From a virus (lineage: Duplodnaviria > Heunggongvirae > Uroviricota > Caudoviricetes), in the IMG/VR virus record IMGVR_UViG_2541047915_000013: a DNA stretch of 35,881 nucleotides; one strand, 5' to 3'. How positions within the stretch are numbered: position 1 is the first letter of the stretch; each line of letters opens with the position of its first letter. The position numbers were made by a program, and so were the translations under genes. The notes below the pieces were generated by a model, which was given only the letters and a program-made list of their open reading frames with translations, was not told the DNA's origin and ran no database searches. Positions 1 to 35,253 of the stretch are shown piece by piece.

Positions 1-483
1 ATGACGAAGAAAAAAGCACATAAACCTGGTTCAGCGACCATCGCGCTTAACAAGCGCGCCCGTCACGAATACTTTATCGAAGAAGAGTTCGAAGCGGGAC
101 TTGCCCTGCAAGGCTGGGAGGTTAAATCCCTGCGCGCAGGAAAAGCCAATATCAGCGACAGCTATGTCCTTCTGCGCGACGGAGAGGCATTTCTGTTTGG
201 CGCTAACATCACGCCAATGGCTGTGGCCTCCACGCATGTGGTGTGCGATCCTACCCGTACCCGCAAGTTACTTCTCAACCAGCGCGAACTGGACTCATTG
301 TACGGTCGCGTCAATCGAGAAGGCTATACCGTAGTGGCGCTCTCCCTGTACTGGAAAAATGCCTGGTGCAAAGTGAAAATCGGCGTCGCCAAAGGTAAGA
401 AACAGCACGATAAACGTTCAGATATCAAAGAACGCGAATGGCAGGTGGATAAAGCGCGTATCATGAAAAATGCCCACCGTTAA
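1..483 (+). CDS. smpB: SsrA-binding protein SmpB (host core gene)
   Basis: 160-aa ORF whose translation I recognise as enterobacterial SmpB; lies immediately upstream of ssrA as in E. coli. Confidence 0.95.
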
Positions 484-697: not shown

Positions 698-1060
698 GGG
701 GCTGATTCTGGATTCGACGGGATTTGCGAAACCCAAGGTGCATGCCGAGGGGCGGTTGGCCTCGTAAAAAGCCGCAAAAAATAGTCGCAAACGACGAAAA
801 CTACGCTTTAGCAGCTTAATAACCTGCTTAGAGCCCTCTCTCCCTAGCCTCCGCTCTTAGGACGGGGATCAAGAGAGGTCAAACCCAAAAGAGATCGCGT
901 GGAAGCCCTGCCTGGGGTTGAAGCGTTAAAACTTAATCAGGCTAGTTTGTTAGTGGCGTGTCCGTCCGCAGCTGGCAAGCGAATGTAAAGACTGACTAAG
1001 CATGTAGTACCGAGGATGTAGGAATTTCGGACGCGGGTTCAACTCCCGCCAGCTCCACCA
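698..1060 (+). ncRNA. ssrA: tmRNA (transfer-messenger RNA), 363 nt
   Basis: Starts GGGGCTGATTCTGGATTCGACGGG and ends CGCCAGCTCCACCA; internal tag template GCAAACGACGAAAACTACGCTTTAGCAGCTTAA (787-819) encodes ANDENYALAA-stop. Confidence 0.95.
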
Positions 1061-1183: not shown

Positions 1184-1666
1184 ATGGAAGAACTTCACTT
1201 TGTTTACATCAATGCAAATGGTCGTATCGGTGTTCACTCAATACAGAGCATCAGTTATAGCGAAAATCATATACAGGGCATTTGTAAGAACACCGATCGA
1301 ATAAAAACCTTCCGAAAAGACCGCATTCTTAAACAGTACGATTCACCAGAACAAGCCATTCAGGAATGCGCGTCATTCCTCCCCGAAAACTACTCACATC
1401 TCACTAAGCAGTCTGGTCCGAAAAAAAATACATTCGATGTGTGCTTCACCGGATTTAAGAAAGCAGATAAAGAAAGATTGGTTGATAAGGCGAATGAACA
1501 AGGATTAACGGTAAGAACCTCTGTAACCCAAAGCCTTCAGATGCTCTGTTGCGGTTACAATGCAGGCCCATCAAAAGTATCGGCAGCCAGGATGAAAGGC
1601 ACAATCATCATAGATGAGCCTGGCTTTATACATTTTCTTGAAACGGGTGAGATCCCAGATGAATAA
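1184..1666 (+). CDS. Hypothetical protein, WYL-like N-terminal domain fused to BRCT-like C-terminal domain (accessory gene)
   Basis: N-terminal FVYINANGRIG...RIKTFRKDRI resembles the WYL motif; C-terminal CFTGF...ERLVDKANEQGLTV...GPSKVSAARMKGTIIIDE resembles a ligase-type BRCT domain; good RBS. Confidence 0.6.
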   Translation: MEELHFVYINANGRIGVHSIQSISYSENHIQGICKNTDRIKTFRKDRILKQYDSPEQAIQECASFLPENYSHLTKQSGPKKNTFDVCFTGFKKADKERLVDKANEQGLTVRTSVTQSLQMLCCGYNAGPSKVSAARMKGTIIIDEPGFIHFLETGEIPDE

Positions 1667-8817: not shown

Positions 8818-8892
8818 AAGGCAGTCTCTCCGGTTGTAGAGGGGGTCTGCCTATGTTCTGGTTGATACGCGCAGGGTGCACGCGATGGGGTT

Positions 8893-8910
8893 TGTATGGG
8901 AAATGGCACA
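8893..8910. promoter_or_regulatory. TGT-N12-ACA element upstream of FI (candidate Ogr-dependent late promoter)
   Basis: TGTATGGGAAATGGCACA in the G-FI intergenic region. Confidence 0.4.
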
Positions 8911-8951
8911 ACGACGGGGTGAAAAGATCCCCGCAGGCGCGGGGCAGGAAT

Positions 8952-9554
8952 TTAAAATTCTGGTAGTTCGGGCCAGTTAATATCAGGGGCTGTGCTGATA
9001 TCTATTGCTGCTACCACGTCGATATAGTCAAGAACGGAATCGAGCTTTACTGTTTCTTCCGCAGTTAATTTTCTTCCCGCCTGCAATTTTAGTTGAATCA
9101 GAACAATGGAAGACATGGCATCATCAATCAGTGACTGGCGTTGCAGTTCAGCCCCTTCCACTGCTGCGTTATGTTGCGCTTTGGTATCCGTCACCCATTT
9201 CTCACCATCCCACTTATCGTATGGTGTTAACGGAGCAATAGTGGTTGTCTTTTCAGGGTAATCTCCCGGCACTGTGATTTCTTTTGAGTCCCCCGTTTCG
9301 GTGTTATAGACGATTTCACCGCGATGGTCTGGCACATATTCCCATGATCTCAAATCCAGAGTTCGACAGGACACATAACCTGACTTATATGAACCAGGAG
9401 CATCTAAACACGAATGTGCGGGAATACCGACGCCAACAGCAAGATATTCAGTTGATTCAGAAATATATTCCCGTGTTTCACCATCATAGTTATAGACGGT
9501 AATATTCCCCGCCTTCGTGGCAATAAGTTCGCTATTTAATACGGCTTTATCCAT
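8952..9554 (-). CDS. G: Tail fibre assembly protein (gpG-like)
   Basis: 200 aa directly downstream of the tail fibre gene. Confidence 0.8.
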   Translation of the reverse strand: MDKAVLNSELIATKAGNITVYNYDGETREYISESTEYLAVGVGIPAHSCLDAPGSYKSGYVSCRTLDLRSWEYVPDHRGEIVYNTETGDSKEITVPGDYPEKTTTIAPLTPYDKWDGEKWVTDTKAQHNAAVEGAELQRQSLIDDAMSSIVLIQLKLQAGRKLTAEETVKLDSVLDYIDVVAAIDISTAPDINWPELPEF

Positions 9555-11179
9555 TACGCAGCTCTCACGATATAGTTAAATGCAATATTTCGTGGACGGG
9601 TTTCGCTCCCACCTGTGTTACCAATACTCCCTCGTGTATGTAGCGTTGGTGATGGAATCAGAGTCCCTCCGGCATCGGCAGCATCAAGCCCCCGGCCTTG
9701 CGTATATGCTTTTCTGAAGATTGCCGCCAGTTCCCATTCCTCTTTTGAATCATACCCATCGTTGGCTACAACCATATGGCGGTGTTTTTCCAGCATTCCA
9801 GCCTGAAGGCTCAATAAAGCACGCCCAGCATCAATACCACGCCCATCATCCCAGCCACGAATAAACTCACCACGTAAATCGGGCAATTTATTTGTCGGAT
9901 AAACCTTTGCCAGTTTGGGATATTCTTCAGCCGAAAAAGCCGCTCCGTTGCATTTCAGCCAGCCTGTCGGTGGAGTGGCAGAAGGCCACGGAACAGGGAC
10001 ACCAACAGGTAATGCAGAGCCATCCCCTAAACCAAGATAATCAAGAACGCCCTGTGCGCTGGGCTTGCTAAGAATGGCACGCCCAACACTTGTCAGTGCA
10101 GTTAAGGCAGCCCGATCTTCCCCTGTAAAATAAGGGAGTTTATCTTTTGATGTAGAAAGCCCTGCCAACGCTGTTAAAGTAGCATCCTTTGGCTGCTTCC
10201 CCGCAAGGGAGTTAGTTATTGTCGTGGCAAAGTTCGGATCATTCCCCAGCGCCGCTGCCAGTTCGTTCAGCGTATCCAGTGCCGCAGGTGCAGAACCCAC
10301 CATGGCTGCAATTGCCGATTTCACAAAAGCGGTAGTGGCAATCTGTGTATTGTTGACCGACTGCGCCGCCGTGGGAGCTGTTGGCGTTCCGGTAAGTGCC
10401 GGACTCGACAGCGGCGCTTTCAGTGCCAGCGCATTGTTAATGGTGGTGCTGAATTTCGGGTCATTGTTTATGGCTGCGGCTATTTCTTTCAGCGTGTCCA
10501 GCGTGGCTGGAGCACCATTAATAACGGCCTTCAGTGCCGCCTGAACAAACGCGGTGGTCGCAAGTTGCGTGGTATTATTCCCCGCCGCTGGCGTTGGCGC
10601 TTTGGGGGTTCCGGTAAATGTTGGGCTGGCTTTTGGCGCATACTGTGAATGTGGATCTGGTGCGGCAAGGTGTTTTGCCATCAGATCATCCACGTACACC
10701 TTCAGCTCCAGTGCCTTGTCATCCACATACTTGCGGGTTGCCAGCACTATAGCAGGATCGATTTTCAAGGTGATATTGTCCGTGCTGCTGGTAATCAGCA
10801 CCATGCGCACGGTCTGGGTGCGCCCGCTGCCTTCAGCCAGTTGCGGCTTATAGCTTTCCGGGCAGTTGCCCACGGCAATCAATGCCCCTGACTCATCAAA
10901 CAGGCCCACTTCACGTATCCACCAACCGCCCTCGTTTTCAGGGATCACCTGTTCAGCAATAATCTGGCTGCTGTTCTGCGGGTCGATATAGAGCATATTC
11001 AGCGCAGCCCGGCGTTTCTCATTTACCAGTGCAGTCTGCTTTGAGTCTGGCGTTGGCAATACTCCGCCGCCATCGCCGACCGCCATATGGGTAATTTTTA
11101 GCGGCACACCGAGCGCGGCGGCGCTGGCAAGTTTCGCCGCGCCAATATCCGTCAGCAGGGTATAAAATTTTGTGCTCAT
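9554..11179 (-). CDS. H: Tail fibre protein H
   Basis: 541 aa; N-terminus MSTKFYTLLTDIGAAKLA is gpH-like; internal tandem repeat; variable C-terminus. Confidence 0.85.
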   Translation of the reverse strand: MSTKFYTLLTDIGAAKLASAAALGVPLKITHMAVGDGGGVLPTPDSKQTALVNEKRRAALNMLYIDPQNSSQIIAEQVIPENEGGWWIREVGLFDESGALIAVGNCPESYKPQLAEGSGRTQTVRMVLITSSTDNITLKIDPAIVLATRKYVDDKALELKVYVDDLMAKHLAAPDPHSQYAPKASPTFTGTPKAPTPAAGNNTTQLATTAFVQAALKAVINGAPATLDTLKEIAAAINNDPKFSTTINNALALKAPLSSPALTGTPTAPTAAQSVNNTQIATTAFVKSAIAAMVGSAPAALDTLNELAAALGNDPNFATTITNSLAGKQPKDATLTALAGLSTSKDKLPYFTGEDRAALTALTSVGRAILSKPSAQGVLDYLGLGDGSALPVGVPVPWPSATPPTGWLKCNGAAFSAEEYPKLAKVYPTNKLPDLRGEFIRGWDDGRGIDAGRALLSLQAGMLEKHRHMVVANDGYDSKEEWELAAIFRKAYTQGRGLDAADAGGTLIPSPTLHTRGSIGNTGGSETRPRNIAFNYIVRAA

Positions 11180-19621: not shown

Positions 19622-21388
19622 ATGAACACCACACTGACACCCGCAGATCTCGATCCCCGTCGGCAGGCCATGCTGCTGTACTTTCAGGGATACCGCGTAG
19701 CCCGCATTGCTGAAATGCTGGGCGAGAAAGTTGCAACCGTTCACAGCTGGAAAAAACGCGACAAGTGGGGTGACTATGGGCCGCTGGATCAGATGCAGCT
19801 CACCACCGCCGCACGCTACTGCCAGCTCATTATGAAGGAGCACAAAGAAGGGAAAGATTTCAAAGAGATTGACCTGCTGGCGCGCCAGTCTGAGCGCCAC
19901 GCGCGGATCGGCAAGTTTAACAATGGCGGCAACGAAGCCGACTTAAACCCTAACGTCGCCAACCGCAATAAAGGCCCACGCCGTCAGCCGGAAAAGAATG
20001 TTTTCACCGATGAGCAGATTGAGAAGCTGGAAGAAATCTTCCATTCCTCCATGTTCAACTACCAGCGCCACTGGTGGGAAGCCGGAAAAACCAACCGCAT
20101 CCGCAACCTGCTGAAGTCACGCCAGATCGGCGCGACCTTCTATTTTGCCCGTGAAGCCCTGATTGACGCCCTGCTTACCGGACGTAACCAGATTTTCCTT
20201 TCTGCCAGTAAGGCTCAGGCCCACGTCTTTAAACAATACATCATCGACTTCGCCAAAGAAGTCGAGGTGGAGCTAAAAGGCGATCCGATGGTGCTTCCTA
20301 ACGGAGCTACGCTTTACTTCCTCGGCACCAATGCCCGCACGGCCCAGAGTTATCACGGCAACCTGTATCTGGATGAATATTTCTGGATACCGAAATTCCA
20401 GGAGCTGCGCAAAGTGGCTTCCGGGATGGCTATTCACAAAAAATGGCGACAAACCTATTTTTCCACGCCATCCAGCCTGACCCACAGTGCTTATCCGTTC
20501 TGGTCCGGTGCGCTGTTCAACCGTGGACGCAACAAAGCTGACAAGGTGGACATCGACCTGTCCCACAGCAATCTGGCCCCCGGCCTGCTGTGCGCAGACG
20601 GGCAATACCGCCAGATAGTCACCGTGGAAGATGCGGTGCGCGGCGGCTGTAACCTGTTCGACCTCGACCAGCTACGCTTGGAGTACAGCCCGGACGAATA
20701 CCAGAACCTGCTGATGTGCGAGTTCGTGGACGATCTCGCGTCCGTGTTCCCGCTCAGCGAACTGCAGGCGTGCATGGTGGACAGCTGGGAAGTCTGGACC
20801 GACTTTCATGCACTGGCCCTGCGCCCGTTTGGCTGGCGCGAAGTGTGGATCGGTTATGACCCGGCAAAAGGTACGCAGAACGGCGACAGTGCCGGATGCG
20901 TGGTGGTGGCTCCGCCAGCCGTGCCGGGTGGTAAGTTCCGCATTCTTGAGCGTCACCAGTGGCGCGGGATGGACTTCCGCGCCCAGGCTGACGCCATCAA
21001 AAAACTCACCGAACAGTACAACGTGACCTATATCGGTATCGACTCAACCGGCGTTGGTCACGGGGTTTATGAGAACGTGAAAGCGTTCTTTCCTGCCGTC
21101 CGGGAGTTTGTCTACAACCCCAATGTTAAAAACGCCCTGGTACTCAAGGCCTATGACATTATCAGCCACCGCCGTCTGGAGTTTGACGCCGGGCACACCG
21201 ACATTGCGCAGTCATTCATGGCAATCCGTCGCGCAACCACCGCCAGCGGCAACCGCCCGACCTATGAAGCCAGCCGCAGCGAAGAAGCCAGCCACGCCGA
21301 TCTGGCCTGGGCAACAATGCACGCACTGTTTAACGAACCGCTGCAGGGCGAATCCGCCAATACCAGCAATATTGTGGAGATTTTTTGA
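19622..21388 (+). CDS. P: Terminase ATPase (large) subunit P
   Basis: 588 aa, gpP-like. Confidence 0.9.
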   Translation: MNTTLTPADLDPRRQAMLLYFQGYRVARIAEMLGEKVATVHSWKKRDKWGDYGPLDQMQLTTAARYCQLIMKEHKEGKDFKEIDLLARQSERHARIGKFNNGGNEADLNPNVANRNKGPRRQPEKNVFTDEQIEKLEEIFHSSMFNYQRHWWEAGKTNRIRNLLKSRQIGATFYFAREALIDALLTGRNQIFLSASKAQAHVFKQYIIDFAKEVEVELKGDPMVLPNGATLYFLGTNARTAQSYHGNLYLDEYFWIPKFQELRKVASGMAIHKKWRQTYFSTPSSLTHSAYPFWSGALFNRGRNKADKVDIDLSHSNLAPGLLCADGQYRQIVTVEDAVRGGCNLFDLDQLRLEYSPDEYQNLLMCEFVDDLASVFPLSELQACMVDSWEVWTDFHALALRPFGWREVWIGYDPAKGTQNGDSAGCVVVAPPAVPGGKFRILERHQWRGMDFRAQADAIKKLTEQYNVTYIGIDSTGVGHGVYENVKAFFPAVREFVYNPNVKNALVLKAYDIISHRRLEFDAGHTDIAQSFMAIRRATTASGNRPTYEASRSEEASHADLAWATMHALFNEPLQGESANTSNIVEIF

Positions 21389-22419
21389 TGGGAAAGAGTA
21401 AGAAGAACCGCGCTGCGGCGACGAAACAGATCCAGCTTAAAAGCCAGACTACAGCCGAAGCATTCAGCTTCGGCGATCCCGTTCCTGTTCTGGATCGCCG
21501 AGAACTGCTGGACTATGTGGAATGCGTACAGATGGACCGTTGGTATGAGCCGCCCGTCAGCTTTGACGGACTGGCGCGCACCTTCCGCGCTGCCGTGCAT
21601 CACAGTTCCCCGATTGCAGTAAAGTGCAACATTCTGACCAGTACCTATATCCCTCATCCGCTGCTCAGCCAGCAGGCTTTTTCGCGTTTTGTACAGGACT
21701 ATCTGGTATTTGGTAACGCCTACCTGGAGAAACGCACGAACCGATTCGGTGAAGTTATCGCCCTTGAGCCTGCGCTGGCAAAATACACCCGACGCGGGTT
21801 AGACCTGGATACCTACTGGTTTGTGCAATACGGTATGACAACCCAGCCGTATCAGTTCACGAAAGGCAGCATTTTTCATCTGATGGAACCGGACATCAAC
21901 CAGGAGATCTACGGCCTGCCCGGTTATCTTTCTGCCATTCCGTCAGCTCTGCTCAACGAGTCCGCCACGCTGTTCCGCCGCAAGTATTACATTAACGGCA
22001 GTCATGCAGGCTTCATCATGTACATGACCGATGCTGCGCAGAACCAGGAGGATGTGAACAACCTCCGCAATGCGATGAAAAGCGCCAAAGGTCCTGGTAA
22101 CTTCCGTAACCTGTTTATGTACTCGCCTAACGGTAAAAAGGACGGGCTTCAGATTATCCCGTTGTCAGAAGTGGCGGCGAAGGATGAGTTCCTGAATATC
22201 AAGAACGTGAGCCGGGACGACATGATGGCGGCGCATCGTGTGCCGCCACAAATGATGGGGATAATGCCTAATAATGTCGGGGGGTTTGGGGATATCGAAA
22301 AGGCAAGCACAGTATTTGTACGAAATGAGCTACTGCCTCTACAAAAAATGTTTCTAGAAATAAATAATTGGTTAAACGATAGAATTATAAATTTTTCAAC
22401 CTACGAACTAAAAATTTAA
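21385..22419 (+). CDS. Q: Portal protein Q (3' end low-GC)
   Basis: 344 aa, gpQ-like; the last ~45 codons are AT-rich like the adjacent cargo. Confidence 0.9.
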   Translation: MMGKSKKNRAAATKQIQLKSQTTAEAFSFGDPVPVLDRRELLDYVECVQMDRWYEPPVSFDGLARTFRAAVHHSSPIAVKCNILTSTYIPHPLLSQQAFSRFVQDYLVFGNAYLEKRTNRFGEVIALEPALAKYTRRGLDLDTYWFVQYGMTTQPYQFTKGSIFHLMEPDINQEIYGLPGYLSAIPSALLNESATLFRRKYYINGSHAGFIMYMTDAAQNQEDVNNLRNAMKSAKGPGNFRNLFMYSPNGKKDGLQIIPLSEVAAKDEFLNIKNVSRDDMMAAHRVPPQMMGIMPNNVGGFGDIEKASTVFVRNELLPLQKMFLEINNWLNDRIINFSTYELKI

Positions 22420-22436
22420 TTAAGATAATTTAGTCG

Positions 22437-22454
22437 GCCTCATTTCTGAGGCCA
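22437..22454. terminator. Hairpin between the convergent Q and ATPase genes
   Basis: GGCCTCA-tttc-TGAGGCC, followed on the plus strand by ATATTTT. Confidence 0.4.
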
Positions 22455-22459
22455 TATTT

Positions 22460-23890
22460 TCATCTTGAAAGTATCACCCGTTCAAACAATGGCATTAATT
22501 GAGAATAAACATTATCATAATGTTCATCATTTAAAAGATGATATTTATTTTCAAGTTTGATGCTATTAAAACCATCCATGAAACTCTCATAACCAACAGT
22601 GCCAATAATAATCTGATTTGTAAGGGAAAACCCATCCAAGCATAGTTTTATAAGCTTATGCGTATGCTCTGGATCCAAATCTTGTTGCTTTGGAGAGTCT
22701 ATTACTATAGGCATATTCTCAACTGAAGAGTTGCTTTTCATAACACTAAGTAGCGCGTAGTGAAATGCAAATATACCTCGAGGACCTCGACTACCAGTCT
22801 TACCCTTAGTAATATTATTATAACTACTAAGGCCACCTACCTTTGTATTTTCGACACCAAGCTCTTTAAGAGCTTTAGCGAAATACTCTTTGAAACAGTC
22901 ATTTATTTTAACAGTTCTTTTCTTATCATTGTATACTTCTAATTCTTCTTGTAATTCTGTCAACTCGCCTTCTTTTCGACCAATCTCAACGAATAACTCA
23001 TCTAACTGTGAAACAAAAGTAGATTCAATTTCATGGTATGCAGCAGATTTAATAACATCATGAAGCGTTATTTCCGATTGAGTTTCTAAAATCAGCGCCT
23101 GCAACGCCTCTGAAGCAGCCCTTGACTCTTCTAGCTTTTGATTCAATTTAGGAATATTTTCCTCAATCTTGCTTTTCTCATCTGCAAGAACAGCAATGTT
23201 TTTGAGCATTTCATCTCTATGGTTTATATAATTATATTCATTTACTGAATAAGCAACATTATCATCTCGAAAATTCGAAATCTCAAATTCATTATCAATA
23301 ATCGCAGTTATCTCTTTGAGTTCACTCTCAAGGAAATTCTTCCTAGAATATAACCTCAAAAGATTCAATCTATATTCTGTCTGAACTAAATTCAAATTAG
23401 AATATTCATTTAATATACGTTCTAACTTTGATTTATAAAAATCCAAATCAACATCAAATAAAACCACACCAAAAGATTCATCAATCTTACTTTTGCTTCT
23501 TTTTAGAACCTTAACAAAACCATCTAACTCTGAAATTTTAACTTTAACTTCTTTGATTTTCCCTTGAACTGTGTAATATTCCTTTGGCTTAATTCCAGAG
23601 TGATAGTAAAGAATGTTTTTTTGCCATTCTGAGTACATACTCATGTTTTCGAAAGAATTTATCACCGCTTTCCATCCTTCATCCTGATCAATAAAGAATG
23701 GGGCAAACAAACAAGCAGGGTTTGCCTGAGTCGTAGCACCCGTATATTTATTATGTAATTCCAGTTTAAAACCAAATATATTTGAAACACGAGATGCTAA
23801 TGACGAAATCGTGTTATACACGACTAGATCATCATTCTTCAAATCAAAGACACCAATAATCTTTTTATAACGCAAAAAAAATAAAATCAC
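22460..23890 (-). CDS. SMC/ABC-type ATPase, C-terminal part (LmuB/DUF3732-like), separated from its P-loop by a frameshift
   Basis: Long coiled-coil region, then PIVIDSP (Walker-B-like) and DPEH (H-loop-like); no Walker A in this ORF; about 30% GC. Confidence 0.6.
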   Translation of the reverse strand: MILFFLRYKKIIGVFDLKNDDLVVYNTISSLASRVSNIFGFKLELHNKYTGATTQANPACLFAPFFIDQDEGWKAVINSFENMSMYSEWQKNILYYHSGIKPKEYYTVQGKIKEVKVKISELDGFVKVLKRSKSKIDESFGVVLFDVDLDFYKSKLERILNEYSNLNLVQTEYRLNLLRLYSRKNFLESELKEITAIIDNEFEISNFRDDNVAYSVNEYNYINHRDEMLKNIAVLADEKSKIEENIPKLNQKLEESRAASEALQALILETQSEITLHDVIKSAAYHEIESTFVSQLDELFVEIGRKEGELTELQEELEVYNDKKRTVKINDCFKEYFAKALKELGVENTKVGGLSSYNNITKGKTGSRGPRGIFAFHYALLSVMKSNSSVENMPIVIDSPKQQDLDPEHTHKLIKLCLDGFSLTNQIIIGTVGYESFMDGFNSIKLENKYHLLNDEHYDNVYSQLMPLFERVILSR

Positions 23891-24134
23891 TTTCCCCGTT
23901 ATTAATTTCCACCAGTGTAACTATATCATCTGATTTCCAAGCATCATCAAGCCTTAAATCTCCACCTAATGTGTAATAAAGACTTTTAATCAGGCTTGAT
24001 TTACCAACATCATTTGTACCATATATGAAGTTAACCCCTTCTGAAAACTCATAAGAAAAAGCTTTTCTGTCTCTTAATGAGAGTATTTTTATATTTTTAA
24101 ATTTAACGTTATTCTTCATAAGAAACATCCTCAA
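23865..24134 (-). CDS. SMC/ABC-type ATPase, N-terminal P-loop fragment
   Basis: Walker A GTNDVGKSSL; frame ends inside a T8 tract where the downstream ORF continues in the +1 frame. Confidence 0.6.
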   Translation of the reverse strand: MRMFLMKNNVKFKNIKILSLRDRKAFSYEFSEGVNFIYGTNDVGKSSLIKSLYYTLGGDLRLDDAWKSDDIVTLVEINNGESDFIFFAL

Positions 24135-25188
24135 AAGTCAACTTTATAATTGCATATATAGCAATCATAAATTTCTCTTCTTGATTTAATAAAGAGAAAT
24201 CCCCGTCCCCCGCTGCAATTGTTTTTTCGAGTGTAAAGAAGAGGTCTCGAACAGGTATCTCACGATAATGCTCTATACTCTTTAGAGCCGATTGAAATTC
24301 CAGAAAATAAAGATAGTATATTGAATTGACATTGAGCACTTTTATTGATATGCGTGTAAAAACTGATTGTAATTTAATCCCCTCATAAGGATCTGAGAAA
24401 GTACCAAGCAACATACAAACCTGTTCCCATTTTGGCGTTATTTTTATGCTTGCAATGAGTCCAGATAATAAATCAGTTACAAATTCTGAAGATATACCTT
24501 TCTTTAGTACTAAATCTTCAAAAGTTTTGATATCACTAGAAGCAACACTAACCTTCTCATTACACTTATTGATTAATAATTTAGTGAATGCTGTTGAATT
24601 AATACCATGATCATCCCCAAAGTAAGAATTCAAAAAAACTGCAACTTTCCCGTATAAATGTGAGTTAGGATCTAACAAACTAAGATCAGATGTTTTAAAT
24701 TTTATTTTATCAAGAGGAACTTCTTTTTTAGTATTTAGCTGCTCTTGAACCTTACTAATTATAATTTCCTTATGCTCATTATTAAGATCACTACCTTTTT
24801 CGTTATTATCATTTAAGAAATCGAATCCAGCATTCGATAACAGAACCATATAAATTTCGTGACCAACGAATTGATAGAAATGGTCATATAGTTTTGCAAC
24901 AAATGATTTAGGTTTAGCTTTTGTTGCGTTCACTATTGCTGCGAGTGTCCATTTACCATCTTTTTTTGTTTTAACTTGGATAAACTCAGCACTAGTCGGA
25001 GAAACAGATGAATTCAATACAAGAATATCGTCATGATATTCAAATAGAAATAAATATTTCTCCTTTTCTTTTTGTTTCTCAAGTAAATAATTTATCCCCC
25101 AAGAGGCTTGATATGAAAAGCCTCTCAACGCGTTTTCACCGCCCCGTTCTGCTTGATTTACTGTAATTAACGCATCTGATAACGCCAC
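24109..25188 (-). CDS. PD-(D/E)xK nuclease-like protein of the Cap4/DUF4297 type (LmuA-like)
   Basis: N-terminal GGENALRGFSYQ ... YHDDILVL ... EFIQVK motifs; GTG start with AGGGA ribosome-binding site; about 30% GC. Confidence 0.55.
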   Translation of the reverse strand: MALSDALITVNQAERGGENALRGFSYQASWGINYLLEKQKEKEKYLFLFEYHDDILVLNSSVSPTSAEFIQVKTKKDGKWTLAAIVNATKAKPKSFVAKLYDHFYQFVGHEIYMVLLSNAGFDFLNDNNEKGSDLNNEHKEIIISKVQEQLNTKKEVPLDKIKFKTSDLSLLDPNSHLYGKVAVFLNSYFGDDHGINSTAFTKLLINKCNEKVSVASSDIKTFEDLVLKKGISSEFVTDLLSGLIASIKITPKWEQVCMLLGTFSDPYEGIKLQSVFTRISIKVLNVNSIYYLYFLEFQSALKSIEHYREIPVRDLFFTLEKTIAAGDGDFSLLNQEEKFMIAIYAIIKLTFEDVSYEE

Positions 25189-25273
25189 TCTATATATCCC
25201 TATTGTACTGCTTTTTTTGATACAAATTACCTTAGCTTCACCATCAAGTCCACAGATTCATGGCTAAGCGCGC

Positions 25274-25293
25274 GCTCGTATCCCCGCCACGCC
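25274..25293 (-). other. cos-like site (putative cohesive-end sequence)
   Basis: Minus-strand GGCGTGGCGGGGATACGAGC; the first 13 nt match the P2/186 cohesive-end sequence as I recall it. Confidence 0.4.
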
Positions 25294-25337
25294 TGCCCGC
25301 TTTATGTAGTGGTTTTCATGCACCTGCATGATCTACG

Positions 25338-25362
25338 CAAAAGCCCGCCAGTTCTGGCGGGC
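25338..25362 (-). terminator. Rho-independent terminator after the dinI-like operon
   Basis: GCCCGCCAG-aac-CTGGCGGGC hairpin followed by TTTTG on the minus strand. Confidence 0.55.
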
Positions 25363-25497
25363 CTTAGCAAAAACGATCCTCAAACGATCATGCGATCTCA
25401 TGCGGCATAGACATGCACTACAGAGCTAACGCCTCGCAAGGGCTCGTTGTTCAACCTTGCTGACGCCAGAAGCAAGTTCAGACGCCAGCAACGTTTC

Positions 25498-25731
25498 TTA
25501 ATGCAGCCAGCTGTCGTCTTCCCACACCTTCTGCATAATTTTCATCACTTGTTTTCTTTCTTCGTCCTGTTGCAGTCCGGTCAGTTCCACACCGTTAGAG
25601 CTACCTTTGCGGATACGAATTACCGTTTTGGGATACAGGGAGCGCAGATTGCGGTAAAGCTCGGATTCAAGGGCGTCCATGGTAGACTGGCTAATCTTCT
25701 GCTCTTTATCGATCATTATTTCAATGCGCAT
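25498..25731 (-). CDS. DinI-family protein (DNA-damage-inducible protein I-like)
   Basis: MRIEIMIDKEQ...LESELYRNLRSLYP...VWEDDSWLH resembles DinI; start set at the internal ATG at 25731; the ORF is open to 25803. Confidence 0.7.
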   Translation of the reverse strand: MRIEIMIDKEQKISQSTMDALESELYRNLRSLYPKTVIRIRKGSSNGVELTGLQQDEERKQVMKIMQKVWEDDSWLH

Positions 25732-25741
25732 AAAAGTCACC

Positions 25742-25930
25742 TCAGCTGATGACATCCATTGAGCGGTTGTATTCGTGGGTTCTGATTTTTGCCATGAGTT
25801 CATCAGTCAATTCAGAAACCCACTGCAGAGCCAGCCCCTTATCTTCATCACTACACTCACTAGCCGCTACAAGCTTAAGAAAAAAATCAATGCGCTGGAG
25901 CTTCAAAGACTCCAAAAAATAGTCCTGCAT
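25742..25930 (-). CDS. Hypothetical protein, first gene of the LexA-box operon
   Basis: ATG at 25930 preceded by AGGAGG; LexA box about 45 bp upstream. Confidence 0.5.
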   Translation of the reverse strand: MQDYFLESLKLQRIDFFLKLVAASECSDEDKGLALQWVSELTDELMAKIRTHEYNRSMDVIS

Positions 25931-25971
25931 CTTTCCTCCTATGACACCACACGCAATACTGTATGTATAAT

Positions 25972-25991
25972 CACTGTTTATATTTACAGTA
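25972..25991. promoter_or_regulatory. LexA (SOS) box
   Basis: CACTGTTTATATTTACAGTA fits CTGT-N8-ACAG. Confidence 0.65.
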
Positions 25992-26083
25992 TATAATAAT
26001 CTTACTGATGTAAAACGTTTTTTTACGTTCATCAGCCTGATATGCCTGGTATTATTAAGAGCACGAATTGTTAACCCGCGTAA

Positions 26084-28498
26084 TTAATACAGGTTCCGCC
26101 ACTGATCATCTTCCTGCAAACGCTGGTTCCGATAGAAGATACGCAGGCCTGCTCCTGACGGAATACTGCCTCCGCGAAGGAGTAAATCGACCTCTTTCTC
26201 GCTGCCATCAAATCCTCTGGACTTCAGCTCATACACGAGCTGCAGTCGCTGATGGTCTGTAATTCGCTGTTTGTAGTCTTTACGCCGTTTCGGTTTCACC
26301 TGGCGTAACCTTGCAGCCAGTTCCCGGCGCTCTTTTTTGCTCATACTGTGCAGGTAATCGTGCAACTCCTTGTCATTCATACAGGTAATATCCGTTCTGG
26401 AGTCCCCATCAGCTGATTTGTCTTTCCCTTGTTGGTTCAAATTTTCAGCAAGGGGACAGTTATTGCCACGAGTCCAAGGGGCGCAAGCGCCCTGGTCGGC
26501 TGCCGCCTCCTGAACGTCAACGGCCTTACGAACTATTTTCCACTTCACTGCATGAGTGCAGATCTTGCCCTCTGCAATGGGTGACCAGATGCCATAAATA
26601 CGAATGCCGTGATCGCCATAGGCGGTCGGCTCTTCGTTGATTTCATAAGCGGTTCTGATCAGGTGATATTTGCGGGGAACCAGTACGCCGCCCTGCTTCA
26701 TGATGTAGGTGGCAAAACAACCAGCATCAGCAGCAGCCAGGATTGCATCAAGGCGCGGGTTATCCAGTACCGGCGCACCTGCTTTTTTGTCCCCCTGTTG
26801 CCTTGCCGCCTGACCAGCCAGCAATCGCAGTTCACGGTAAGCCTGACGCCCCGGAATGCCAAAGAAGCGGAATTGCTGAACACGATGCAGAGACGCCCAG
26901 GCATTAACGTATTCAGCGTTATCACGCAGGGATTTACCCGTTTCCTTGCTGATCTCGCCAGCCAGACCACGCCCGTCAATGTTCTTACTAATGTATTTCG
27001 CGATGTAGCTTGTCGGCGTTCCTTTGCGCGGGTTAATCAACTCAGACTTAAAGCGCGGCCCTGTGTTATTGCCCAGCTCCTCGCGGTCTTCACGGATGGC
27101 AAACTTACGCAGTAATGCAGTGATGGCGCGGCGGTCTTTTTTGCGCATAAAACACAACAGGTGCCAGTGAACTGTACCGTCATGATGCGGCTCAGCCACC
27201 CGCACGCCATACCACCGCAATCCGGCTTTGTGCATCGCCTTACGAAATGCAGCAAACATGCCGACCAGATAATCACTGCTTTGTCTTACCGTCGCATTTG
27301 TCCAGGTTGGGTTGGGCCTGCCGTTATTTAGCGTGGAATGGAAACGTGACGGACAGGTGATGGTGTAGAAAACGGCGCAGTCACCGCGCATTTCCGCGAT
27401 AAGCTCCAGACCTTTAACACAGGCCATCATCTCATTGCGGCGATGCGCAGGGTTGCTGCTGCTGGCGTTTACCACATCTTCCATATCCAGCGTGTCGCCG
27501 TCTTCGTTCACCAGTTCATGAGAACGAAAAAACTCCAGCGACTTACGGCGCTGCTCACGTTTATGCATCACGGCTTCATAGCTGACATAGGGGGATGCTT
27601 TTTTGCTGACCAGGCAGACAGCACGCAACTGCTCTTCCCGCCATTCGCAACGCATCTTCCATAATTTCCGATACCACCAGTCGGCACACAACATACGCGC
27701 CAGCGAACCCGGAATGAGTTCATAGGGCACGGGTTTACGGCGGTTTCTTTTCCGACGGAGTTGCTCAAACGCAGGCGGAATAACATCCAGACGCAGGGTT
27801 TCCGCTGCCACCTTTTCCCATGTTTTGCGGATTTCTTCTGGCTTAACGTCATCGGTGGCATACAAATCGCCACAAGCTGCATCAAGACACATGCTCATAT
27901 GCGCAGCAACAAGGGTGGACAGGCGTTTCACCTGATCCTGACTCATTTCAGGCAGGATCAGCAGGCCGTCCAGCCCTTCATGGCTTGCCATAAAGCGAAA
28001 AGAAGTGGATAGCTGACTCTCGCGTACATGCTCCAGTCGTTCCAGACATGGCTTAATCGTCTCACGCAAATAGCGGGAATAAGCCTTTGGCCTGCCCAGG
28101 CTGCTGAAGTATTCAATACGTTGCATCAGCGGCTTGCTGATATGGGAAGGCTGGGCGTTGACGTCCGCCAGAATGACCATGTCTGGATTAAAACGCTGCT
28201 GCTCATGCGCCAGCTTTGCCCGGCTAATGAGCTTATCCTGCTCCATTTCGCGCTGGACAGGATCACGGGATTCATTAAAGAAATAACGCTCCCAGACCTG
28301 ATCACTCAGTGCCTCACGGCGCAGTTGTTCCTGCTCGTTATCGGCAGCGTACAGAGTGATCAGGTTTGAAAGCGCAGAAACCGGCGCAACTTCCGCCGGG
28401 TCCAGATAAGGGTTAATAGCCTTTTTCGGGCTGTTCCATGAGAATGCTGCGGCGGCCTCGTTAAAGCCGCTGCAGTTGTTCATATCAGCATGGCTCAT
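26084..28498 (-). CDS. A: Replication initiation endonuclease A (rolling-circle initiator)
   Basis: 804 aa; HxH motif (VHWHLL) and YIAKYISK tyrosine motif; gpA-like. Confidence 0.9.
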
Positions 28499-29352
28499 GC
28501 ACGCACTCCGTACACGGCAGAACTATCCACGCCACGCGAAGGATCAAATCCCACCCAGCAGCGCGCCCCAGAAACAGCGATGATTTCTGTTGCAGATTTA
28601 CTCTCACCAGCTGCTACGCCGATGCTGCGTTTTGCCTTGATGTAGTGGTGAGTAAAATTGCGATACAGCGAACGGATCAGGGATGTGTCACTGTTAGAAA
28701 CAATGACCGGATGTCCTTCTGATGACCGATGTTCAAGAACGGATGCCAGGTGATACTGGTCATCTTCAGTGAAGCCGTCAGTGTGATAACCGGAAAACGT
28801 GCCGTCATACGGCGGATCGCAATACACCACATCCCCCGCCTTCAACATCGCCAGCGTTTCATCAAAGCTGGCGCAGATAAACGTTGCCCGCTGGGCTTTC
28901 TCTGCAAATGCGCGAATTTCTTTTTCAGGGAAATACGGATTTTTATAATTACCGTAGGGAATGTTGAAATACCCGCTCTTGTTATAGCGACATAACCCAC
29001 GGTAACCATGACGATTGAGATACAGAAAATATACCGCTTTCATGAAATCAGTAATTTCAGTGGAGTAATTAAACTTCTGCCTTATGTTGTAATAAGCCAC
29101 CTCCCTGTTTGCTTCCTCAAATAAAGCTCTGGCACGAGATATAAATGCCTCACAATCAGCAGCAACCTTTTTATAGAGGTTGATTAAATCAGGATTAATA
29201 TCCGCAACAAGATAGCTGGGGTAATCCGTCTCCATCATCACAGCACAGGAACCCGCGAAAGGTTCAACCAGTCGCGGGCCAGCAGGAAGGTGTTTTTTCA
29301 GTTCGGACATAATGGCGGTTTTATTTCCCGCCCATTTCAGGATGGTGCTCAT
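28495..29352 (-). CDS. dam: DNA adenine methyltransferase (Dam-like, N6-adenine)
   Basis: N-terminal SAM-binding region and DPPY motif (YCDPPYDG); start set at the ATG at 29352 ([11 protein letters not shown]). Confidence 0.8.
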
Positions 29353-29576
29353 ACAGCACCTCCGTTGTAATGTTTGCCTTTCAGCTCTGCAATTTCCTGG
29401 CAGGTAATGCAAAGCTGCACACCCGGAATGGCACGGCGGCGTGCTGGCGGAATTGGCGCTTCACACTCAATGCAAAGCACGCGAGACACGCCCGGTGTTT
29501 TGGCACGGGCAGCACGGATATGGCGCTGGCGTTCTTCTTCAACGCGCTGCTGTACGAGATCCATTGCATCAGCCAT
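29349..29576 (-). CDS. TraR/DksA-family C4 zinc-finger protein
   Basis: CIECEAPIPPARRRAIPGVQLCITCQ motif. Confidence 0.7.
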   Translation of the reverse strand: MADAMDLVQQRVEEERQRHIRAARAKTPGVSRVLCIECEAPIPPARRRAIPGVQLCITCQEIAELKGKHYNGGAV

Positions 29577-31927: not shown

Positions 31928-32944
31928 ATGACCATCAGAAAACAGCCGAACGGAAAATGGTTGTGTGAGTGCTATCCCAATGGACGCAATGGTAAGCGCG
32001 TGCGTAAGCAATTTGCTACGAAAGGCGAAGCCATTGCTTTTGAAAGCTTCACAATGGAAGAAGTGAATAAAAAACCGTGGTTGGGTGAAAAGGATGATCG
32101 GCGACGCCTATCAGAATTAATTGAGCTTTGGTATTCCCTGTATGGTCAGACACTCGCAGACCCCAAGCGCCTCATGGCGAAACTTAGAATTATCTGTAAT
32201 GGTCTAGGCGACCCCATCGCCTCAGAACTGACAGCCGGTGACTTTACGAAATACCGCGAAGCACGGTTAAAAGGTGACGTTCGTAACGAAGACGGCACAC
32301 TAATGTCGCCAGTAAAACCACGCACGGTGAATCTTGAGCAACGTAACCTATCATCGGTTTTCGGCACATTGAAAAAACTAGGCCACTGGTCAGCACCAAA
32401 TCCTCTCGCCGGGCTGCCAACATTTAAAATCGCTGAGGGGGAACTGGCGTTCCTGACCTCGGAAGAAATTAAACGTCTGCTAGATGCCTGCGCTGATTCT
32501 CAAAACCCCAGTCTGCTTTTGATTGCAAAAATATGCCTGGCCACCGGCGCACGCTGGAGTGAAGCTGAAAACCTGCAGGGCCATCAGTTATCTAAATACC
32601 GCATCACTTATACCAAGACGAAGGGTAAGAAAAACCGCACCGTGCCGATATCTCAAGATCTGTATGACGAACTCCCCAAGAACAGAGGGAAGCTATTCAC
32701 CCCGTGCAGAAAAGCCTTTGAACGAGCAGTAAAGCGAGCTGGCATCGAGCTGCCAGAGGGCCAATGCACTCACGTGCTACGTCATACATTCGCCAGCCAT
32801 TTTATGATGAATGGCGGAAACATACTGGTGCTGCGCGATATTCTGGGCCATGCCGATATAAAAATGACGATGATTTACGCCCACTTTTCGCCCGATCACC
32901 TTGAAGATGCGGTAACTAAAAACCCTTTATGCAACTTAAGATAG
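31928..32944 (+). CDS. int: Tyrosine integrase (P2/186 family)
   Basis: 338 aa; ...ATGARWSEA..., ...HVLRHTFASHFMMNGG... and ...MIYAHF motifs typical of P2-type integrases. Confidence 0.9.
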   Translation: MTIRKQPNGKWLCECYPNGRNGKRVRKQFATKGEAIAFESFTMEEVNKKPWLGEKDDRRRLSELIELWYSLYGQTLADPKRLMAKLRIICNGLGDPIASELTAGDFTKYREARLKGDVRNEDGTLMSPVKPRTVNLEQRNLSSVFGTLKKLGHWSAPNPLAGLPTFKIAEGELAFLTSEEIKRLLDACADSQNPSLLLIAKICLATGARWSEAENLQGHQLSKYRITYTKTKGKKNRTVPISQDLYDELPKNRGKLFTPCRKAFERAVKRAGIELPEGQCTHVLRHTFASHFMMNGGNILVLRDILGHADIKMTMIYAHFSPDHLEDAVTKNPLCNLR

Positions 32945-33324: not shown

Positions 33325-35058
33325 CTACTCAAGGAGATATTCTAACTCATCTTTTATCGGGATAATTTGCTCATAAAGTCGGTGATATGACTTCCCAATT
33401 GCGCCTCTAAATTGTATTAACTTTGGTGGCTTACTACCTATATTAATAATATGGTCTTGAGCTATACCTGGGTAGGGATCAATAAATACAATTTCAGATA
33501 TACCTAACTGATAAGCTTTTTTCGCACACAACTCACAGGGACTGGCAGTTGTATACAACTTCCCCCCCAGAACGCCAATACCACCATATTTTGCAAGTTG
33601 CAAAAATGCGTTTTCCTCAGCATGTAATGCACGTGTATGAACTTGATTACCTTTTTTCTCTTTATCAAGATCATTATGTATATCTTTAAAACAATAAGAT
33701 AAGTTCCTGCCTCTATAAATATCACCAGTTTTATCTATCGCCCTAAAATTTAAGAGTTTCTCATTAGCTTTAATTCTGAAAGAACTATTATTTCTCTCAT
33801 AATGACTGTACGTTTTTTCATCAAAATCGTTCATTAGGCCATCTAGAGATCTCATAGAGCAAGGAATCTGACCGTTGGCAACATCATTCCAACCAACTGA
33901 TTTTATTGAATTATCACCATCAGTTACTACAGCTCCCACCTGTCTAGATATACAGCCAGAGTTTAATTTTACCGTATACGCAACTTGCATAACCCTTTCC
34001 ATTGCAGTAGGTGTTATCAGACCAGGATGCTTCATCAGTGCGATGTACCACGCTAATTGTGCTTTTAAAATATTGTCATTATCAAATTCATTTTTTGGGT
34101 TAAAAATGTGTATATCTGATAGTTCAATACATTTAGTTACATTTGGATTGGTGAGATGTTTGTAAGAGTTATCACCTTTACCTGACTCTACAGAATCTAT
34201 TTCCTCTATCTGCTTTTCTGAAAACTTATGTAGTTTCCGCAAATAGTTTGTTCGATGTTCATCCGGGGCATTTATTGACATTAAATGAAATGCAGAATAT
34301 CTATCCTTAAAAAATTTTGCCTCATATGGATTTCTAATAGCATCTATGACAATTAATGCGTTATCTCTTTTGCTTTTTCTTATTAATTTAATAACCCTAT
34401 TAATAGTTTCCGGCAAATGAAAAACAGATTTAGGCATAAACTCTTTATCTTCAAAATCGACTTCAATACGCCCACGACGTCTAATTGACTTACCTGCTAA
34501 CTGATAGGCTGAAACATATAAATTTGAGTTTATCTCATTTAGTTCAGCTTTGAATTCTTTAGTAAATTTTCTAACTAACTTCAAAATTGATATAAATTTA
34601 TTAATCGTTTTTTCATCAAGCTTCAATTCACTATTATGATCAAGCAAATTCTCAATTACATTTTTAAATCTTGTCAAAATGAGATTATCTGAGAATACAC
34701 CAAAAGTTAATACAATATCTAAATGCTCTTTACTGATAGATTTATTAGATGATAGAATGAATTCAGAAGCTTCCTCAGCTGTTAACATCAGAAGATACGC
34801 TGAGATTAGGTCACTCACCTTAATTGAGTAAAAATTTTCCCAGTGATTTTCTGCGAATTTTTTAACTATATTATAACGATGGACATCCAATCCCTTGTAA
34901 AACCCCTGTAATTTACTTACATCAGGGAAGACTGTTTTTTCGTTTTCAAGAATATTAGCTGTTGTTGTGCAACCAGAACCAGTTCGACCTGTCAAACCGA
35001 CTAAAATAAACTGCCCATTTTCAAGGAAAAGCTCACTAACGAATTTTTTTTCTTTCAT
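33325..35058 (-). CDS. P-loop kinase-like / cytidine deaminase fusion protein (AvcD/dCTP-deaminase-like accessory gene)
   Basis: N-terminal P-loop GRTGSGCTT; C-terminal deaminase zinc motifs HAEENA and SPCELC; ATG at 35058; about 30% GC. Confidence 0.7.
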   Translation of the reverse strand: MKEKKFVSELFLENGQFILVGLTGRTGSGCTTTANILENEKTVFPDVSKLQGFYKGLDVHRYNIVKKFAENHWENFYSIKVSDLISAYLLMLTAEEASEFILSSNKSISKEHLDIVLTFGVFSDNLILTRFKNVIENLLDHNSELKLDEKTINKFISILKLVRKFTKEFKAELNEINSNLYVSAYQLAGKSIRRRGRIEVDFEDKEFMPKSVFHLPETINRVIKLIRKSKRDNALIVIDAIRNPYEAKFFKDRYSAFHLMSINAPDEHRTNYLRKLHKFSEKQIEEIDSVESGKGDNSYKHLTNPNVTKCIELSDIHIFNPKNEFDNDNILKAQLAWYIALMKHPGLITPTAMERVMQVAYTVKLNSGCISRQVGAVVTDGDNSIKSVGWNDVANGQIPCSMRSLDGLMNDFDEKTYSHYERNNSSFRIKANEKLLNFRAIDKTGDIYRGRNLSYCFKDIHNDLDKEKKGNQVHTRALHAEENAFLQLAKYGGIGVLGGKLYTTASPCELCAKKAYQLGISEIVFIDPYPGIAQDHIINIGSKPPKLIQFRGAIGKSYHRLYEQIIPIKDELEYLLE

Positions 35059-35253
35059 CACGTCCCACTTATGAATGCAAGAACAATTAACATATTAATT
35101 GTAATTTATTAACTAATTTTATTCTAGATACTTGATGTAATGGCGGCACTTTGGCGGCAGAGCATTAAAAACGCGTAAGACGAGCAAATACAAAATAACA
35201 CTAACACATTGTTTTCAAACATAATCTACTGTTTTTACTATAATAAAAATGGT

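Follow-up and report, generated by a model that had tools for sequence, protein, structure and literature searches.

A probable type I Lamassu cassette, carrying a frameshifted lmuB as sequenced, in the cos-proximal hotspot of a P2-like prophage

The stretch of DNA analyzed herein (hereafter the window; 35,881 nucleotides of the virus record IMGVR_UViG_2541047915_000013, Caudoviricetes) contains, at positions 22460-25188, an AT-rich block on the minus strand that we assigned, with a probability of about 0.93, to the type I Lamassu defense systems, i.e., those composed of only the two genes lmuA and lmuB. The block comprises a nuclease gene, lmuA, and an overlapping gene for an ATPase of the SMC (structural maintenance of chromosomes)/ABC (ATP-binding cassette) type, lmuB, the latter of which is split by one additional T in the sequence as assembled. 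The coordinates of these genes and of the surrounding features are summarized in Table 1.

The product of the first gene matched the PADLOC LmuA profile PDLC00243 nearly from end to end (residues 1-356 on profile positions 1-360 of 361, E = 4e-143), and the sole Pfam domain found in it was Cap4_nuclease (PF14130; residues 15-212, E = 1.4e-33). In the AlphaFold2 (AF2) model of the protein, which had a predicted local distance difference test (pLDDT) score of 86, the C-terminal domain (residues 223-354) was helical. A Foldseek search with this model identified 9ux7_C, the LmuA subunit of an LmuAB-DNA complex, as the best fold match in the PDB (352 columns), followed in order by Hachiman HamA, VcLmuA, Cap4 and Salmonella LmuA. 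Furthermore, Q27 of the GFSYQ sequence as well as H52-D53-D54 and Q71-V72-K73 were invariant across the LmuA homologues (n = 14 for the HDD and QVK motifs), and the latter two motifs were located on neighboring beta strands of the model. The protein was 100% identical to the LmuA of NZ_CP128581 (WP_021565864.1).

Two open reading frames (ORFs) follow lmuA. The shorter spans 23865-24134 (89 aa), with the real ATG at position 24119, and the N-terminal piece that it encodes matched positions 2-81 of the PADLOC LmuB profile PDLC00255 (E = 1e-39), while the C-terminal piece matched positions 79-549 of 550 (E = 1e-208). Since the two ORFs thus tile a single profile, they are halves of one gene. A profile built from 25 LmuB sequences matched the PDB entries 9ux7 and 9ux8, "Lamassu protein LmuB" (562 aa), over the full length (E = 5.5e-44), with Rad50 heads coming next, and the Walker A Lys of LmuB (K40) was aligned with K37 of 9ux7_A, the residue mutated in BcLmuB in the structural study of type I Lamassu (bioRxiv 10.1101/2025.06.23.660979). 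The AF2 model of LmuB was made from P0016, an intact protein of 99% identity (pLDDT 83); a fold search with it likewise gave 9ux7_A at the top (E = 1.5e-24), then type II LmuBs, Rad50 and SMC heads. In this model, coiled-coil helices (residues 179-419) were inserted between the two halves of the ATPase head.

The motifs of the ATPase were also well conserved among the LmuB homologues. The invariant residues included the Walker A motif G34-x4-G39-K40-S41, the Q-loop D144-Q145, G442-S443..P446-R447 in the C-terminal piece, which carries a signature-like motif G-S-R-x-P-R, the D-loop D482, and Q502. The Walker B motif was deviant (P470-I-V472-I473-D474-S475-P476, with P-x-V-I-D-S-P invariant in 25 homologues), and its V-I-D-S fits the deviant Walker B "hhhhD[Q/S/T/E]" described for short Lamassu (PMC12663957). 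The position following Q502 was Val or Thr, the His of the Rad50 H-loop being aligned to Val, and His485/487 of LmuB were conserved in close relatives only. As for the zinc hook, neither the LmuB of the window nor any of 18 homologues with 36% identity or more contained a CxxC, and a CPxC at about residue 294 was kept in distant homologues and in 60 of 79 loci. The LmuB of the window belongs to a gammaproteobacterial subclade (at least 36% identity) from which the CPxC zinc hook and approximately 15-20 residues of the coiled-coil apex have been lost, both being retained in BcLmuB and in more distant type I LmuBs; the zinc hook content is known to vary among short Lamassu systems and hence is not strictly defining (PMC12663957). 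NCBIfam returned for both proteins nothing beyond weak P-loop matches to SMC, Rad50 and RecF.

The gene arrangement further specified the subtype. The two genes overlap by 11 nt, and there is no room for lmuC on either side: downstream, a 40-bp gap containing a terminator is followed by the portal gene Q, and upstream lie the cos region and a dinI-like gene. Because of this overlap, and because no lmuC fits between cos and Q, the layout is that of type I (LmuAB). The same arrangement prevailed more widely, since in 77 of 79 LmuB-encoding loci, drawn from species-representative genomes of many phyla, an LmuA homologue was encoded directly upstream; the two genes overlapped or stood no more than about 40 bp apart, too close for LmuC to fit between them. 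A first-pass annotation of this DNA had proposed from motifs that the first gene encodes a Cap4-like PD-(D/E)xK nuclease, that the second encodes an SMC/ABC-type ATPase, and that the pair matches the LmuA/LmuB of Lamassu. All of these proposals were well supported: the nuclease by the Pfam match and the invariant GFSYQ Gln, HDD and QVK; the ATPase by the invariant Walker A and VIDSP sequences, the modeled coiled coil and the match to 9ux7; and the pairing by the agreement among profile hidden Markov models (HMMs), the 9ux7 profile match and the fold searches with the AF2 models. The checks that it had suggested, namely HMM and PADLOC searches and structure prediction, matched nuclease and SMC/ABC folds with the Lamassu models being the best. 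Conversely, its "H-loop-like His" had to be abandoned, as the position of the Rad50 H-loop His is occupied by Val in LmuB, and so did its suggestion of a divergent or undescribed variant, given that the PADLOC model fits end to end and that identical proteins are common in RefSeq.

The sequence of lmuB was disrupted by a run of eight T residues on the coding strand (GAT TTT ATT TTT TTT GCG TTA TAA). The run was read in nine relatives, one of them a Klebsiella phage record and the others E. coli loci, and each had seven T residues; this is the frameshift to which the first-pass annotation had alluded. The annotated copies of lmuB were all 1659 nt long. In silico deletion of one T yielded a 552-aa LmuB identical to that of E. 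coli VG888-46E9, whose LmuA was also identical. Since both the repaired LmuB and the LmuA are identical to intact alleles, the lesion is either very recent or an error. It was the sole coding indel within 25 kb aligned at 99.5% to the prophage of this strain (NZ_CP128581), a region containing 48 homopolymers of at least 6 nt. Positions 20865-27119 of the window were identical to the scaffold KE702030.1 of GCA_000460795.1, for which an 84-aa product is on record (EQY01235.1 / WP_021565863.1), and the split products of 84 and 476 aa were recorded both in NCBI and in an independent Logan assembly. In the structural model, the reading frame is broken within strand 78-84, which belongs to the N-terminal beta-sheet of the ATPase head, and the +1 insertion would thereby part the Walker A strand (84 aa) from the remainder of the head and the coiled coil. 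Judging from this model, neither fragment of LmuB should work, and the cassette as sequenced is most likely non-functional.

The run affected is not the only one of its kind. The intact cassette contains exactly four 7-nt homopolymers, and +1 alleles of all four were present in public E. coli protein data. Alleles with -1 changes (P0150 and P0152) were found at no fewer than two of the runs, and a third candidate in the T-run of lmuA (P0153) is labeled "partial" and may represent a contig end. For P0110 and P0109, the tract lengths were deduced from in silico +1 and -1 translations, which reproduced the recorded C-termini exactly.

Of 5426 complete E. coli genomes, 11 carried the cassette, while 1277 contained only the flanking dinI/Q sequences; the cassette was also present in 12 Klebsiella Peduoviridae records that were near-identical. 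The exact LmuA occurred in 1936 blocks of a large assembly collection. Among the matches listed, the order gpA, orf62, dinI, cos, lmuA, lmuB, Q was retained in 10 of 10 places, 9 of which had an intact LmuB. Around the 79 LmuB loci of other species, none of the P2 genes searched for (Q, P, A, dinI, int and others) was found, and thus the association with P2 is specific to the E. coli and Klebsiella copies. The neighbors in other genera included IS110 and rve transposases, a tyrosine integrase, an AAA_15/AAA_21 ATPase, VgrG and metabolic genes, so that those contexts are island-like and devoid of housekeeping synteny. The cassette of the window is a horizontally acquired, AT-rich cargo of a P2-like prophage. 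In two other copies the surrounding prophage was degraded. In L097 (GCA_044144075.1), lmuB is followed directly by the 160-aa ORF that neighbors ssrA and then by smpB, with Q to ogr deleted. In L003 (E. coli H2, NZ_CP028733), where the cassette is likewise kept, the portal and tape-measure genes are both truncated and adjoin each other. The defense cargo appears to outlast these prophages.

Several points weigh against the assignment and the reading of the frameshift, or narrow them. The fold match of LmuA to solved LmuA structures was moderate (template modeling score, 0.51-0.59), and searches against the PDB sequences with the single LmuA sequence, a 14-sequence profile or the N-terminal domain alone retrieved no Lamassu chain. 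LmuA was linked to the solved LmuA via structure prediction and Foldseek only. K73 is the presumed counterpart of the catalytic Lys in BcLmuA (K59) and VcLmuA (K57). Since the LmuB clade in question lacks the CxxC zinc hook mediating the dimerization of BcLmuB, the details of LmuAB assembly may differ, and a defense activity of the E. coli/Klebsiella subfamily would be an extrapolation from Bacillus proteins of about 20% identity. A scan for consensus promoters detected none 5' of lmuA at its threshold, with fewer sites than in shuffled sequences; by reading of the sequence, a TACAAT hexamer is located about 20 nt 5' of the GTG codon of lmuA, and the promoter of the cassette itself presumably lies in the leader or farther upstream. 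Silencing by H-NS is frequent among AT-rich defense loci of prophages (bioRxiv 10.64898/2026.09.05.749240). Finally, the extra T was read from an assembly and may not be biological. As regards the family, it seems very improbable that the pair belongs to a different class of nuclease plus ATPase, such as CBASS Cap4, Hachiman (HamA), Gabija, PARIS or an OLD-like system. LmuA did weakly match HamA models (E = 5e-11 to 2e-8) and the Hachiman structure 8zue, and the P-loop region of LmuB matched GajA, AriA and PtuA (E = 1e-5 to 3e-7), but these cross-matches were confined to the nuclease core or the P-loop and lay more than 100 orders of magnitude below the Lamassu matches; moreover, Pfam found SAVED, helicase and TOPRIM domains in neither protein, and no CD-NTase or HamB gene is nearby. 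Each of these candidates was also considered individually. CBASS Cap4 was rejected since Cap4_nuclease was the only Pfam domain, without SAVED/CARF, and no cyclase gene was found in the neighborhood. HamA is a DUF1837 protein of about 540 aa paired with the HamB helicase, and Hachiman was rejected because the weak HamA matches were limited to the first 97 or so residues of LmuA and no helicase gene is present. OLD, Gabija and PARIS were rejected because the matches to GajA and AriA were at the P-loop level only and a TOPRIM domain was not found. The resemblance of the LmuB head to Rad50/SbcC could also be taken to indicate a housekeeping or phage-replication module for DNA repair of the SMC/Rad50 type. 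Such a role is extremely improbable in view of the occurrence of the cassette in just 11 of the 5426 E. coli genomes, its absence from P2 itself, its nature as AT-rich cargo in a variable hotspot, the flanking transposases and integrases with no conserved synteny seen in other genera, and the partnership of LmuB with a Cap4 nuclease rather than with Mre11/SbcD.

With the type I Lamassu assignment retained, the status of lmuB was considered in the same manner. We regard the frameshift as probably real and a sequencing error as the less likely origin. That the cassette is a functional type I Lamassu, its extra T being an error of homopolymer sequencing or assembly, is accordingly rather unlikely, even though only one base of a homopolymer is affected, both proteins are otherwise 100% identical to intact alleles, and 9 of the 10 places with an identical LmuA have an intact 552-aa LmuB. 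Only 1 of the 48 homopolymers of at least 6 nt differed from NZ_CP128581, which argues against a generally error-prone assembly; the 84-aa product was present in the NCBI and Logan assemblies alike; and the same +1 allele on another allelic background (P0110, N78) was found in 8 contigs from several isolates, indicating that such mutations do occur. Given that the public data include indel alleles of each of the four 7-nt A/T runs, the tracts might also serve as contingency switches, in which slipped-strand mispairing would interconvert a T8 OFF and a T7 ON state and/or slippage of RNA polymerase would restore some full-length LmuB; A/T runs of about 8-9 nt or longer permit transcriptional slippage in E. 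coli. If this were true, P2 lysogens could use the switches to discard a costly abortive-infection system or to recover it, and the window would represent the OFF state. We consider this improbable, as the variants are rare relative to the very many intact copies (the 1936 blocks with exact LmuA), a tract length of 7 nt is short by the standard of classical phase variation and is expected from composition at 32% GC, and part of the variants may be sequencing errors. The pattern looks like sporadic slippage at AT-rich mutational hot spots, possibly with some sequencing errors, and not like a dedicated phase-variation device.

The element hosting the cassette is a P2-like prophage of about 34.2 kb, integrated at the 3' end of ssrA and containing two defense cargos, with the same gene order as the annotated E. 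coli prophage in NZ_CP128581. The cos region was identified by alignment to P2: positions 25325-25281 of the window aligned with P2 33543-33587 (82% over 45 nt, E = 4.6e-8, blastn) and positions 25293-25267 with P2 1-27, so that the whole segment 25325-25267 aligned with P2 33543-33593 plus 1-27, which comprise the flank of cosR and cos. A search of the window for the P2 cos 19-mer with up to three mismatches allowed gave no match.

Table 1. Positions of the cassette, its homopolymer tracts and the surrounding features in the window.
Feature	Position	Strand	Remarks
lmuA	24109-25188	-	359 aa, GTG start
lmuB, entire	22460-24119	-	Pseudogene or frameshifted gene in this copy; the intact product has 552 aa
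lmuB, N-terminal piece	23865-24119	-	84 aa from ATG, ending in ...DFIFFAL and a stop; contains Walker A
lmuB, C-terminal piece	22460-23890	-	476-aa ORF, +1 frame relative to the N-terminal piece
Frameshift site	23874-23881	-	T8 run in the coding strand, read as A8 on the plus strand; intact allele T7
LmuB apex region	~23220-23280		LmuB residues ~280-300; hook-less loci L006-L023 vs L024-L084
lmuB A-run	23616-23622		+1 allele P0109, 24 contigs
lmuB T-run	23874-23881		+1 alleles P0107 (product of the window) and P0110 (other allelic background, 8 contigs)
lmuA T-run	24632-24638		+1 alleles P0146/P0151, strain L73 (split lmuA)
lmuA A-run	24961-24967		+1 allele P0148
Leader between cos and lmuA start	25189-25274	-	86 bp
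cos region with conserved upstream flank	25267-25325	-	blastn against the circularized P2 cos junction
Cohesive-end-like sequence, 19 nt	25293-25275	-	GGCGTGGCGGGGATACGAG; 5 mismatches to the P2 cos 19-mer
Portal gene Q	21385-22419	+	Convergent with lmuB
GC-rich hairpin	22436-22453		GGCCTCA-TTTC-TGAGGCC; lies within the 40 bp that separate the 3' ends of Q and lmuB
dinI-like gene	25498-25731		NCBIfam DinI, E = 1e-11
62-aa ORF (orf62)			Between the dinI-like gene and gpA
Replication gene A (gpA)	26084-28498		
smpB	1-483		
tmRNA gene (ssrA)	698-1060		
Direct repeats, 46 bp, perfect	1016-1061 and 35254-35299		Copies of the ssrA 3' end marking the prophage ends

The GC content was 32.1% in 22460-25188 as compared with 55.2% in the phage late region (1700-22419), and thus the block of low GC content in a prophage of about 55% GC that had been described at first pass was confirmed, as was its position between a cos-like site and Q, given the alignment of cos to the P2 junction and the location of Q. 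The accompanying statement that this is the position of old/tin in P2 stood in part: the hotspot between gpA and gpQ is the same, but the slot differs, old/tin of P2 being on the gpA side of cos and the cassette on the Q side. This cos-proximal region between gpA and gpQ has been described as a defense hotspot of P2-like phages (Rousset et al., PMC9122126) and was later resurveyed (PMC13586616). The cassette is a cargo of this hotspot, as it is compositionally foreign and variable and lies between A and Q beside cos. Being on the Q side of cos, lmuAB would occupy the extreme left end of the packaged genome.

The hairpin between Q and lmuB is likely a bidirectional terminator, and the P2 annotation has the tQ terminator at the corresponding spot 3' of Q. 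A short distance upstream of cos, 3' of the dinI-like gene, there is another hairpin, GCCCGCCAG-AA-CTGGCGGGC followed by TTTT (25339-25362, minus strand). It probably terminates the early (gpA) operon and was overlooked by the terminator scan because its T-tract is short. Some prophages that are otherwise identical contained additional variable cargo on that side of cos where gpA lies (4098-4817 of L004, from E. coli L73, and 2628-3053 of L104), consisting of an HNH endonuclease gene in one and a 141-aa ORF between dinI and lmuA in another.

Other genes of the prophage also deserve mention. A second defense gene of low GC content (33%) is located at 33325-35061 (minus strand), between the integrase gene (31928-32944) and the distal att repeat. 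Its 578-aa product matched the PADLOC dCTPase model (E = 1.2e-145) and is annotated as "anti-phage dCTP deaminase" in the same context in NZ_CP128581, the location corresponding to the minor int-att hotspot of PMC13586616. Directly upstream of gpA, within the early operon of the prophage, is a gene for a Dam-like orphan DNA adenine methyltransferase (28495-29412, minus strand; PADLOC oMTase, E = 2e-111), and P2 has no methyltransferase gene at this spot. Between ssrA and ogr, in a stretch of 44% GC (1001-2000), lies an ORF of 160 aa (1184-1666, plus strand), annotated as hypothetical in RefSeq, which weakly matched PADLOC PDC-S48 with its C-terminal 70 residues (E = 1.8e-7) and may be a further cargo at the att-proximal end. 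The prophage of NZ_CP128581 is elsewhere 97-99.5% identical to that of the window, but collinearity is lost in the tail-fibre/assembly region (8819-10217). This region measures about 1.4 kb in the window as against about 2.7 kb in NZ_CP128581, where it includes a recombinase gene and an inverted tail-fibre-assembly gene, and it looks like a swapped host-range module.

An intact copy of the cassette could operate in the manner established for BcLmuAB, VcLmuACB and SeLmuACB, in which an LmuB2:LmuA1 complex, a tetramer of LmuA triggered by DNA ends, and protection against phage or plasmid have been reported (bioRxiv 10.1101/2025.06.23.660979; PMC12663957). The steps that follow are transferred by homology across about 20% identity, the present analysis having covered the family, domains, motifs, gene order, location and distribution. 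A dimer of LmuB, a Rad50/SMC-like ABC ATPase whose coiled coil is short, would bind a single LmuA monomer by the C-terminal domain of LmuA, and the Cap4-type nuclease would be kept inactive as long as it is bound. Binding of LmuB to free double-stranded DNA ends or phage replication intermediates, together with ATP, would then release LmuA, which could form a tetramer and cleave DNA indiscriminately, thereby aborting the infection. The population of lysogens would in this way be shielded from competing phages.

The import of these results beyond annotation is small, since the system type, its mechanism (structures of 2025-26) and the cos-proximal hotspot of P2 have all been published; the system and its hotspot were both known before, the present copy is probably a freshly inactivated one, and the result is a good annotation and not a discovery. 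The gain lies in the label, type I Lamassu with a frameshifted lmuB in place of "hypothetical protein" or "AAA family ATPase". In censuses of defense systems, homopolymer frameshifts in AT-rich cargo are worth checking, and the natural pair of T7 and T8 alleles would be handy for testing an enterobacterial, hook-less type I Lamassu.

Among the characterized systems, BcLmuAB of Bacillus cellulasensis NIO-1130 (PDB 9ux7/9ux8; Doron 2018) is the closest counterpart, giving the best fold match for both proteins and the best profile match for LmuB, even though the identity is about 15-20%. It is likewise an lmuA-lmuB operon without lmuC; its LmuA of about 360 aa likewise combines a Cap4 nuclease domain with a helical C-terminal domain; and its LmuB of about 550-560 aa has the Walker A sequence GxxxxGKS, a deviant Walker B ending in D-S and a short coiled coil. 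The cassette of the window differs from it in the Gram-negative host, the P2-like prophage as the carrier and the frameshift in the present copy, and BcLmuB has a CQYC sequence, whereas the LmuB clade of the window lacks CxxC and 15-20 residues of the apex. The type II LmuACB systems (DdmABC of Vibrio cholerae, PDB 9nxx/9nyg/9uxh; Salmonella enterica, PDB 9hqu/9hqx) share the LmuA and LmuB folds and presumably the logic of activation, i.e., sensing of DNA ends followed by tetramerization of LmuA, and VcLmuB, like the LmuB of the window, has no zinc hook. In contrast, type II systems have LmuC and an LmuB of about 570-660 aa, while the cassette has no LmuC and an LmuB of 552 aa, and the match was far weaker (LmuB profile, E = 0.006 against 9hqu; no sequence match for LmuA).

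The old/tin genes of P2 occupy the same hotspot between A and Q beside cos and presumably play the same role as a barrier to other phages, but their proteins are unrelated to LmuAB (Old is an ATPase plus TOPRIM nuclease), and their place is the gpA side of cos, where the P2 genome has its right end, as opposed to the Q side in the case of lmuAB. The Cap4 of CBASS (PDB 6vm6/6wan) has a homologous PD-(D/E)xK double-stranded DNA endonuclease domain; unlike it, LmuA has neither SAVED/CARF nor an accompanying CD-NTase, and would be activated by release from LmuB instead of by a cyclic oligonucleotide. Rad50/SbcC-Mre11/SbcD, which has been proposed as the evolutionary source of Lamassu (PMC12663957), likewise has an antiparallel coiled coil inserted into an ABC ATPase head. 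The coiled coil of LmuB is much shorter than that of Rad50/SbcC; moreover, LmuB lacks the hook and the H-loop His, its Walker B is deviant, and its partner is a Cap4 nuclease in place of Mre11/SbcD.

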